From the sequence record OK335775.1: 64,000 nucleotides of DNA, one strand, 5' to 3'. The DNA comes from Escherichia phage PSD2002. Positions 61,395 to 63,743 of this stretch are shown piece by piece; the stretch's first letter is position 1; the number at the start of each line of letters is the position of its first letter. The notes under the pieces were generated by a model. It was not told the DNA's origin. It saw nothing but the letters and a program-made list of their open reading frames with translations, and searched no databases. Both the position numbers and the translations under genes were made by a program.

Positions 61395-61399
61395 GTTAT

Positions 61400-61428
61400 G
61401 GGACTCCGAAGAGTCCCATTTTTGTTTC
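61400..61428 (+). terminator. Rho-independent terminator
   Basis: GGGACTC-CGAA-GAGTCCC plus ATTTTTGTTTC. Confidence 0.7.
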
Positions 61429-61445: not shown

Positions 61446-61474
61446 GGTGTACATCTCCGGTAGGCATGATACTA
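61446..61474 (+). promoter_or_regulatory. Early promoter cassette
   Basis: GTGTAC ... TACTAT followed by the leader ACCAAATAATACGAAAACAAACT, which is repeated at 61925. Confidence 0.5.
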
Positions 61475-61516
61475 TAGACATGTACCAAATAATACGAAAA
61501 CAAACTGGAGAATAAA

Positions 61517-62333: not shown

Positions 62334-62375
62334 TCTTAAAAATGGAGGCTTCGGCCTCCTTTGAGGAAAATATTA

Positions 62376-62662
62376 TGTTTATGACCACTTATTTCGATAC
62401 TCGTAAAAATTTCTGTGAAGTTGTTTTCTCTAAAGCAGGTAAAGACGTTCCTGCCGACAAACAACCTACTCGTGAATCTATTAAGGCCTATGCTGATGTT
62501 GTATGCCCTGTAGAATTCCGTACTGTTAATGGTCGTGATACCTTAGCAATCACTAAGCTCAACCGTGATATCAATATCGACCCTAGTGCCGCCCGTGAAG
62601 TCAATACCTCTGACATCTATGGTGGTAATGTTAAATCACACGGCTTTCAGATGAGGTTCTAA
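62376..62662 (+). CDS. Hypothetical protein
   Basis: ATG 62376 after GAGGAAAA. Confidence 0.4.
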
Positions 62663-62856
62663 TGCAACTATTTTTATCGCAAACAGTCCAGTTAAAAGGC
62701 GTAGGTATTCCTGGAATGATTTCCAAGGTTCTACCTGCTTTTAAATTAGGTAATGTTATTATTAAAGAAGCCTACACCGTCTTATGGGTCGATGGAACTG
62801 AAGACGTTCGCATGGGCGGTGAACTGTCTGTAATCAAATGTTTAAAGCGAGGATAA
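62662..62856 (+). CDS. Hypothetical small protein
   Basis: 64-aa ORF. Confidence 0.4.
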   Translation: MQLFLSQTVQLKGVGIPGMISKVLPAFKLGNVIIKEAYTVLWVDGTEDVRMGGELSVIKCLKRG

Positions 62857-62857
62857 T

Positions 62858-63070
62858 ATGTTTAAGAAATTGATTCAGAAATTATTAGGTACGGAAATGG
62901 TCGAAGTGACTTATCGTGTAACTGATTTATCTCCTGTGCATCCACAAGATGAACCATATACTAAAACAATTAAAATGCTGAAATCTGACGGCGGATTATC
63001 TATTAAAGACCGTCTACCTTGTTATGGTCATTGGGCTGATGTAGAGATTATCAGTGTCAAAGATATTTAA
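62858..63070 (+). CDS. Hypothetical small protein, tandem paralog 1
   Basis: 70 aa; shares EVTYRV.DLSP ... SIK(D/E)RLP ... IISVKD with the next ORF. Confidence 0.5.
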   Translation: MFKKLIQKLLGTEMVEVTYRVTDLSPVHPQDEPYTKTIKMLKSDGGLSIKDRLPCYGHWADVEIISVKDI

Positions 63071-63079
63071 GGAGTCTTC

Positions 63080-63292
63080 ATGATTAAGAAATTATTTAAA
63101 AAGCTGTTTGGCTTGGAACTGGTTGAAGTGACTTATCGTGTTATTGATTTATCACCGCCATATGCTTGCGATGAAGATGCTATTAAAACTGTTGTTATGC
63201 GAAAAACATATCGCGGGCAGTCAATTAAAGAAAGATTGCCAGATCATGGCATGTGGTATGCAACCAAGATTATCAGTGTCAAAGATGTCTGA
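63080..63292 (+). CDS. Hypothetical small protein, tandem paralog 2
   Basis: 70 aa; same conserved blocks as the preceding ORF. Confidence 0.5.
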   Translation: MIKKLFKKLFGLELVEVTYRVIDLSPPYACDEDAIKTVVMRKTYRGQSIKERLPDHGMWYATKIISVKDV

Positions 63293-63743
63293 GTTAGAAA
63301 TCAGAAGTAATTTTCCGTGGCCATCGTGTGCATTAAGTAACTTTGCTAAATGGCCTTTCGTTATGGATGGTATCCAATTTGGAGGGCTCGAAGGATTCCT
63401 CCAAGGGTGTAAGGTGAGAAATCATGAACAACAAAAACGTATATTTGGGATGTCCGGTCTGGCCGCACAACAAACTGGAAGAGCTTATGCAAGAGCTGCG
63501 GACCGTGGGACGCTTTTCTGGCTTGGAATTCCCTTTTCAAGATACTCTACATCATGGAAAGAGTTGTATACAAATGCATATTTTGAAGCAGCGCTCCAAA
63601 ACAAAGGATTCCGCGACGCATTACAAGCTACAAAGGGCAAAGTTTTAAAGCATTCGATGGCGAGTCACCTTACAGAATGTGATACAATACTAACTGAAAA
63701 AGAGTTTATCGACATCCTAAACAAATTGAGAGATTTATTATGA
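63285..63743 (+). CDS. NADAR/YbiA-like domain protein (putative N-glycosidase or ADP-ribosyl hydrolase)
   Basis: 152 aa from ATG 63285; N-terminal F.W.S.ALSNFA...F...G..F...E motif typical of NADAR/DUF1768. Confidence 0.45.
   Translation: MSELEIRSNFPWPSCALSNFAKWPFVMDGIQFGGLEGFLQGCKVRNHEQQKRIFGMSGLAAQQTGRAYARAADRGTLFWLGIPFSRYSTSWKELYTNAYFEAALQNKGFRDALQATKGKVLKHSMASHLTECDTILTEKEFIDILNKLRDLL

Follow-up and report, generated by a model that had tools for sequence, protein, structure and literature searches.

The window analysed here is a stretch of 64,000 nt from Escherichia phage PSD2002 (OK335775.1), a T4-like phage of the Dhakavirus lineage whose nearest relatives are Shigella phage PSD9 (99.1%) and phage WG01. 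Its genes follow the order rIII, 30.9, 30.8, 30.7, 30.6, 30.5, then a pair of small ORFs (copy A and copy B), then 30.3, 30.2, 30.1 and ligase (Table 1). The two ORFs are spaced 222 nt apart in one reading frame, and each has its own Shine-Dalgarno sequence upstream, GAGGA for A and AAGGAG (63069-63074) for B. In genomes that carry the tandem, A terminates in ...KDI-TAA. The single-copy gene of other genomes terminates in ...KDV-TGA and overlaps adfN. An earlier note, made from the sequence alone, had placed the two adjacent 70-aa ORFs correctly and had quoted their conserved blocks and divergent centre accurately. In a single BLASTP comparison, A and B align without gaps at 40 of 70 positions (57% identity, E=1e-25), a likeness far past chance. 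The note's description of divergence gathered around the centre is right as regards the centre itself, but it overlooked codons 55-63, which read CYGHWADVE in A and DHGMWYATK in B.

Upstream of the pair, a strong terminator-like hairpin (9 bp stem followed by a T-run) after 30.9 and a promoter-like site before 30.8 (61398-61419 and 61466-61493) suggest that the genes from 30.8 to 30.2 make up a single compact early unit. In the same string of genes, 30.6 (62342-62662) contains a short hypervariable patch at 62432-62462, where identity to Gaprivervirus relatives is 62-70%, compared with 86-92% on either side.

Table 1. Features of the 30.4 locus in the PSD2002 window, in order of their first position
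Feature	Coordinates	Strand	Description
Gene 30.5	62662..62856	+	64 aa; PHROG 1690 (E=1.3e-28) and synteny; upstream neighbour
Copy A	62858..63070	+	70 aa, ATG start; orthologue of T4 gene 30.4; 'VHPQ' central allele
5' identical block A/B	62903..62919 (B partner 63125-63141)	+	17 nt
A variable centre	62927..62998	+	Codons 24-47; from column entropy and pN/pS
A beta1-beta2 loop	62927-62956	+	Codons 24-33, hypervariable; followed by beta2 and turn
Mosaic tract	62950..63358	+	3' two-thirds of A, junction, B and first ~70 nt of adfN
3' identical block A/B	63045..63064 (B partner 63267-63286)	+	20 nt
A-B junction	63068..63079	+	TAA stop of A, AAGGAG for B, 5-nt spacer
Copy B	63080..63292	+	70 aa, ATG start; derived 30.4 paralogue
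B centre	63149..63220	+	Codons 24-47; PPYACDEDAIKTVVMRKTYRG, invariant across all B copies
B-specific C-terminal block	63242..63268	+	Codons 55-63, DHGMWYATK against consensus GYGHWADVE
adfN (T4 gene 30.3)	63285..63743	+	Pfam PF08010 (E=3.5e-64); NADAR DNA ADP-ribosylglycohydrolase

Both copies belong to a single small-protein family, PHROG 2042, whose profile is matched over its full length by A (E=2.4e-34) and by B (E=4.1e-26), and this bears out the tandem paralogy that the earlier note had proposed. The Pfam tag PF26911 (Phage_T4_Y12I) is attached to all homologues of A and B. The T4 member of the family is gp30.4 (UniProt Q02405, Y12I_BPT4), which resembles the window copies in family profile, in length and in its slot between 30.5 and 30.3 (adfN), and whose stop-start overlap with adfN is the one seen in B and in all single-copy genes. 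It differs in that T4-type proteins are only 41-46% identical, and in that the window phage has two copies. The syntenic slot was confirmed in PSD9, dhaeg, IME08, WG01, P896, PST and Sso113. Within the family, A is 96-99% identical to 30.4 of PSD9 and WG01 and 44% identical to that of T4, and the identities of A to the family in tblastn form a continuum from 99% down to 41%. The T4-type and all A-types share a C-terminal block, (G/S/C)YGHWADVEIISVK, containing the motif YGHWADVE; the block is kept in A (CYGHWADVEIISVK) but not in B (DHGMWYATKIISVK), which has HGMWYATK instead. Because B lacks this conserved block and carries unique residues at invariant columns, it stands as a divergent subtype.

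By these searches the gp30.4 family is narrow and confined to T-even coliphages. It was found by tblastn in 721 phage records, essentially all of them T-even-type coliphages, and 1.84 billion representative proteins, searched exhaustively with a profile, yielded only three real clusters. In IMG/VR there are 10 family loci, every one of them A-type. A Foldseek search of the PDB with 30.4 gave nothing significant (best E 0.68), the structure matches of 30.4 in BFVD were solely uncharacterised small phage proteins, and neither A nor B was matched in a PDB profile search, NCBIfam or PADLOC. A search of the published literature for gp30.4 or Y12I by name found no relevant paper. A and B are already deposited as hypothetical proteins, and the locus is an ordinary feature of a gene family.

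What distinguishes the window from most of its relatives is copy B. Proteins at least 96% identical to B occur in 14 phage records, and all others fall below 60% (tblastn). A copy-number survey of relatives, as the earlier note had recommended, recovered two family members in 13 of the 721 records, each of them an A+B tandem, and no other duplication of the family. The junction between the copies (AAAGAYATTTAAGGARYCWTCATGATTAA) is identical in six loci, namely the window, WG01 and dhaeg in Dhakavirus, P896 and TH54 in Gaprivervirus, and a metagenomic Logan contig (L020), which argues for a single origin of the tandem. When B copies are compared with one another, dS reaches 0.54 while dN is at most 0.05 (omega ~0.09), and the A copies that accompany B carry any of four loop alleles (VHPQ, HTADH, WARN and YLQD). 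Given this low omega, its own Shine-Dalgarno sequence, and its persistence as the sole copy in phage 212 and in contigs L021-L026, B is, to judge from its sequence, a functional gene. It might instead be thought a redundant and decaying duplicate on its way to being lost, as it is missing from ~98% of the phages that bear the family, and deletions that collapse the A/B pair do occur. Yet B is intact in all of its carriers, with a strong Shine-Dalgarno sequence, its constraint holds across a dS of 0.5, the collapsed hybrids retain the body of B rather than that of A, and B keeps the coupled position beside adfN. We therefore consider a decaying B very improbable, and regard it as a maintained gene.

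The age of the pair bears directly on how it arose. The earlier note had read it as a recent tandem duplication, which would have happened in situ, with one surface of a small inhibitor then diversifying rapidly, and on the face of it A and B would fit such an event, being adjacent, in frame and equal in length, and conserved at both ends but not in the middle. The synonymous divergence between them is hard to reconcile with a recent date. A and B are 65% identical at the nucleotide level and 56% identical at third codon positions, with a dS of 1.5 over the whole gene and 1.18 when the centre is left out, and a dN of 0.33 and 0.25 respectively (Nei-Gojobori). Among the non-T4 genera, even the deepest comparisons of orthologues give a dS no higher than this (0.9-1.05), and A against the T4 type gives a larger one (2.25). 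Outside the centre, where A and B differ from each other by a dN of 0.25, the dN to the T4 type is 0.52 for B and 0.30 for A, so that the B branch accounts for nearly all of the change in protein sequence. In addition, the residues found only in B (Q7K, Y56H, H58M, A60Y, D61A, V62T and E63K, in protein numbering) fall at sites where 42 A-type sequences and T4 show no variation, or almost none. Taken together, the saturated dS, the asymmetric dN and the B-only residues point to an old event, in which A is of the ancestral type and B is derived. B had one ancient origin, followed by asymmetrically fast change that was later frozen by strong purifying selection.

We also asked whether B could simply have been acquired as an allele of some other phage. 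Its unique N- and C-terminal changes and the synonymous divergence throughout the gene speak instead for a distinct old paralogue. Of the alleles in single-copy phages, 'YEFC' is the nearest to the centre of B. ENA and Logan contigs (L004 and L005) carry a single 30.4 (P0023) whose centre, YEFC-EKPFTETIVMRKNKDGKSIK, resembles PYAC-DEDAIKTVVMRKTYRGQSIK of B, and the C-terminus of this protein is A-like despite its B-like centre. The centre of B may thus derive from the YEFC allele class.

The second part of the earlier note's reading concerns the divergent centre. AF2 models of both copies (pLDDT 86.2 for A and 84.6 for B) have a helix at residues 2-9/10, strands at 14-23 and 34-41, a short helix at 49-52 and a strand at 60-69, and gp30.4 is accordingly predicted to be a small protein of the alpha+beta kind, in which an amphipathic helix at the N-terminus precedes a sheet of three strands. 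Among 42 A-type variants, the hypervariable columns are residues 27-33, in the loop between the first two strands, with a column entropy of 1.6-2.7 bits; variation in A-type proteins is moderate in beta2 and the turn that follows, and both ends are conserved. Across nine allele classes, pN/pS is 0.4-1.8 in the centre and 0.07-0.3 in the flanks, with many of the pairwise contrasts significant, and dN/dS is about 1-2 in the loop and ~0.1 in the flanks (omega 0.04-0.15), although the ratio for the centre covers just 24 codons and is confounded by recombination, and a value near 1 fits relaxed and diversifying selection alike. In the cleanest case, A of the window and A of TH54 differ in the loop by 12 nonsynonymous and 2 synonymous changes, and in the rest of the centre by none, while their flanks differ by 2.5 nonsynonymous and 8.5 synonymous changes (p=0.003 against the loop).

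These patterns indicate that the loop is a family-wide, cassette-like polymorphism of the single-copy gene, one that predates the duplication and is independent of it. Diversification of one surface after duplication is thus not supported, since the loop polymorphism is older and family-wide, and the C-terminal block of B has changed as well. Within the family, dN/dS is indeed near or above 1 in the variable segment; between the two copies, the comparison that the earlier note had put forward as a check, dS is saturated and the duplication is old.

How the window came to carry two copies, and its close relative PSD9 one, is best seen from the mosaic tract. Against TH54, which belongs to the other genus, the window differs at 9 of 409 positions within the tract and at 125 of ~592 to its left (Fisher p=5e-21). 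Against single-copy PSD9, which is near-identical elsewhere, the tract aligns over 152 nucleotides and holds 10 of the 19 differences (p=4e-5). As the differences from PSD9 cluster in the tract, the contrast between two copies and one reflects an exchanged tract, rather than duplication in situ or simple deletion. B is today a presence/absence polymorphism, passed between Dhakavirus and Gaprivervirus on a tract of ~400 nt by homologous recombination. A second mosaic tract was observed further into adfN (63471-63620), where the window is 98-100% identical to TH54, P896 and 212, and the adjoining parts of adfN are 85-92% identical.

With this, little is left of a recent duplication at this site. 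The dS between A and B is saturated (1.2-1.5), one A-B junction is common to both genera, B copies have diverged from one another to a dS of 0.54 with just 5% protein change, the divergent centre is a pre-existing polymorphism across the family, and the difference from PSD9 is an imported tract. The equal lengths and shared frame notwithstanding, we regard that origin as highly implausible. Rather, we are confident in the evolutionary and anatomical account of the A/B pair given here, in which an old, derived paralogue sits beside an ancestral-type gene with a variable loop.

The tandem may also be lost by recombination. A and B share two blocks of identical sequence, one near codons 13-21 that is 17 nt long in the window and 23-27 nt in other tandem phages, and one towards the 3' end that is 12-20 nt long across the tandem phages. 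These blocks permit unequal crossover, by which the pair collapses to one hybrid gene. Phage 212 and metagenome contigs L021-L026 have a single gene of this kind, with A codons 1 to ~12 joined to the body of B, and the body is 98% identical to B at the nucleotide level; this is the product expected of unequal crossover in the 5' block. The hybrid was also considered as the ancestral B allele, and this was rejected on the grounds that the N-terminus of B in the tandems has diverged from A at synonymous sites to the same degree as the remainder of the gene. At Val17, a synonymous variant (GTT or GTG) is common to both copies within each genome, and it separates P896 (L008) from the window, WG01, dhaeg and TH54. 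This hints at occasional gene conversion between A and B in the conserved 5' block.

Downstream of B lies adfN, for which much more is known. T4 gene 30.3 has been renamed adfN, and its product, a NADAR DNA ADP-ribosylglycohydrolase, enables T-even phages to overcome DarTG1 (PMC11825919). AdfN strips ADP-ribose in vitro and rescues RB69, yet in cells that are not infected it fails to neutralise DarT1, and its rescue of T5 or Bas25 is slight (PMC11825919). RB69, which is rescued by ectopic AdfN, carries an intact 30.4 (P0027). In the window, the adfN ATG lies within the last codons of B (ATGTCTGA), an overlap of 8 nt, and no Shine-Dalgarno sequence is visible at the adfN start. The same overlap is present with a single 30.4 in every relative examined, the T4 type included. 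Given the overlap of the adfN start with the stop of B, and the lack of a visible Shine-Dalgarno sequence, translation of adfN is probably coupled to that of B or, in single-copy phages, of 30.4.

The two genes are nevertheless separable. Records with adfN number 1510, as against 721 for 30.4, and no relative of 30.4 was found upstream of adfN in the more distant T4-like genera Pseudotevenvirus, Slopekvirus, Lazarusvirus and Krischvirus, so AdfN homologues exist without 30.4. The N-terminal protein sequence of AdfN is identical whichever 30.4 allele precedes it, and does not co-vary with the allele or with B. All three observations tell against a partnership between gp30.4 and AdfN. Some further observations concern the adfN reading frame. 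A 201-aa ORF with a GTG start (63138-63743) is the adfN frame remaining open upstream into B, and some gene callers used on metagenomes placed the adfN start farther upstream (161 and 165 aa), as in L020, L025 and L026. In Escherichia phage vB_EcoM_005 (L012), adfN encodes 119 aa rather than 152, with an internal deletion of residues ~9-41; judging by this deletion, vB_EcoM_005 may, like RB69, be a T-even-like phage that is naturally defective in adfN.

The function of gp30.4 has been approached through T4. In PMC9697503, T4 gp30.4 appears as an early transcript and as an early protein detected by MS. The gene is dispensable on laboratory hosts, being scored 'Not Fit' in CRISPRi-ART and Non-essential in HIDEN-SEQ, where 21 of 21 TA sites were disrupted (10.1101/2025.11.20.689424). 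On a DarTG1 host, just two T4 genes were significant in that transposon data set, 30.3 and 30.4 (10.1101/2025.11.20.689424, Extended Data Table 6, sheet Data S6). The log2FC was -7.25 for 30.3/adfN and -1.79 for 30.4 (375.9 to 108.0, p=0.0001, q=0.014), values that concern the T4 orthologue rather than the window phage and that may include a polar or coupling effect on adfN (10.1101/2025.11.20.689424). Genes 30.6, 30.2 and 30.1 were unaffected on DarTG1, 30.5 had a log2FC of -3.0 that was non-significant owing to a jackpot insertion, and on DarTG2 30.4 was unaffected (log2FC -0.03) (10.1101/2025.11.20.689424). The main text of the preprint covers adfN alone with respect to DarTG1, and not 30.4 (10.1101/2025.11.20.689424).

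On one hand, these data make the anti-defense role proposed in the earlier note plausible, as adfN adjoins 30.4 and is coupled to it, and T4 30.4 is early, dispensable on laboratory hosts and depleted on the DarTG1 host. A hypervariable loop together with a second, fixed paralogue is also the pattern expected of a factor that faces variable host targets. On the other hand, the depletion could be explained by a polar effect, since the 8-nt overlap and the lack of a visible adfN Shine-Dalgarno sequence mean that insertions in 30.4 could act through lost coupling. In that case gp30.4 would have no anti-DarTG1 role of its own, the depletion would come entirely from an effect in cis on adfN, and A and B would be independent small early factors of host interaction or takeover, directed at a variable target; a weaker version holds that translation of 30.4 mainly delivers ribosomes to adfN. 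Such a reading is served by the partial depletion of 30.4 next to that of adfN, by the frequency of adfN without 30.4, by the lack of co-variation between AdfN and 30.4, and by the conservation of A in tandem phages even though it is there uncoupled from adfN. What it leaves unexplained is the strong constraint at the protein level, with omega at 0.04-0.15 in the flanks and 0.09 in B, which shows that the protein itself matters. Insertions in 30.6, farther upstream in the gene string, are not depleted, and the unexplained need of AdfN for T-even infection makes a partner conceivable. We hold an effect purely in cis to be a serious possibility, though one that falls short of even odds.

The alternative is that gp30.4 has an accessory role in an anti-DarT counter-defence module headed by adfN, a suggestion that we make tentatively and that is, taken by itself, slightly less probable than the effect purely in cis. 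Here, gp30.4 would act as a T-even-specific helper of AdfN or as a small binder of the host toxin, the variable loop would set its specificity, and phages with A and B would carry two specificities. A bolder form, which we consider distinctly doubtful, would make gp30.4 the missing T-even-specific partner on which the full activity of AdfN depends, or a DarT1-directed specificity subunit, with a loop that tracks variants of DarT/DarTG and a B cassette that spreads by widening host range; if true, phages with A and B would be armed against two DarT/DarTG variants. To the best explanation as a whole, which joins the evolutionary account to the functional one, we assign a probability of roughly 0.55.

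Whatever its function, the locus illustrates how small genes evolve, in that a hypervariable loop, an old neofunctionalised paralogue, the transfer of a cassette between genera and collapse by unequal crossover are all seen in one place. In addition, 30.4 is a candidate in relation to the question raised by the AdfN study, of why AdfN works only in T-even infections, because it adjoins adfN, is coupled to it, is restricted to T-even phages, and is the one T4 gene besides adfN to be depleted on DarTG1. A comparison can be made with AdfA (T4/RB69 gp61.2) and AdfB (ICP1), which are small orphan anti-DarT proteins (PMC11825919). Like gp30.4, AdfA and AdfB are small phage proteins with no known homologues; their alleles differ in the DarT that they neutralise, and natural variants occur in relatives. 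By analogy, the hypervariable loop of 30.4 and its two-allele tandem would fit the same logic, and T-even phages do stack several anti-DarTG factors. A relationship in sequence between gp30.4 and AdfA or AdfB is not expected, and the sole functional datum for 30.4 is a transposon depletion that is confounded by polarity.

A second comparison is with the plastic regions of T-even genomes, such as the internal-protein loci, in which conserved linkers flank variable cassettes. Polymorphism is common among the small accessory genes of such regions in T4-like phages. The 30.4 locus is like these polymorphic accessory loci in its short conserved blocks around a cassette, in recombinational exchange between co-infecting relatives, and in presence/absence variation. 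It is unlike them in its variable unit, which in 30.4 is both a loop inside one 70-aa protein and a whole extra paralogue.
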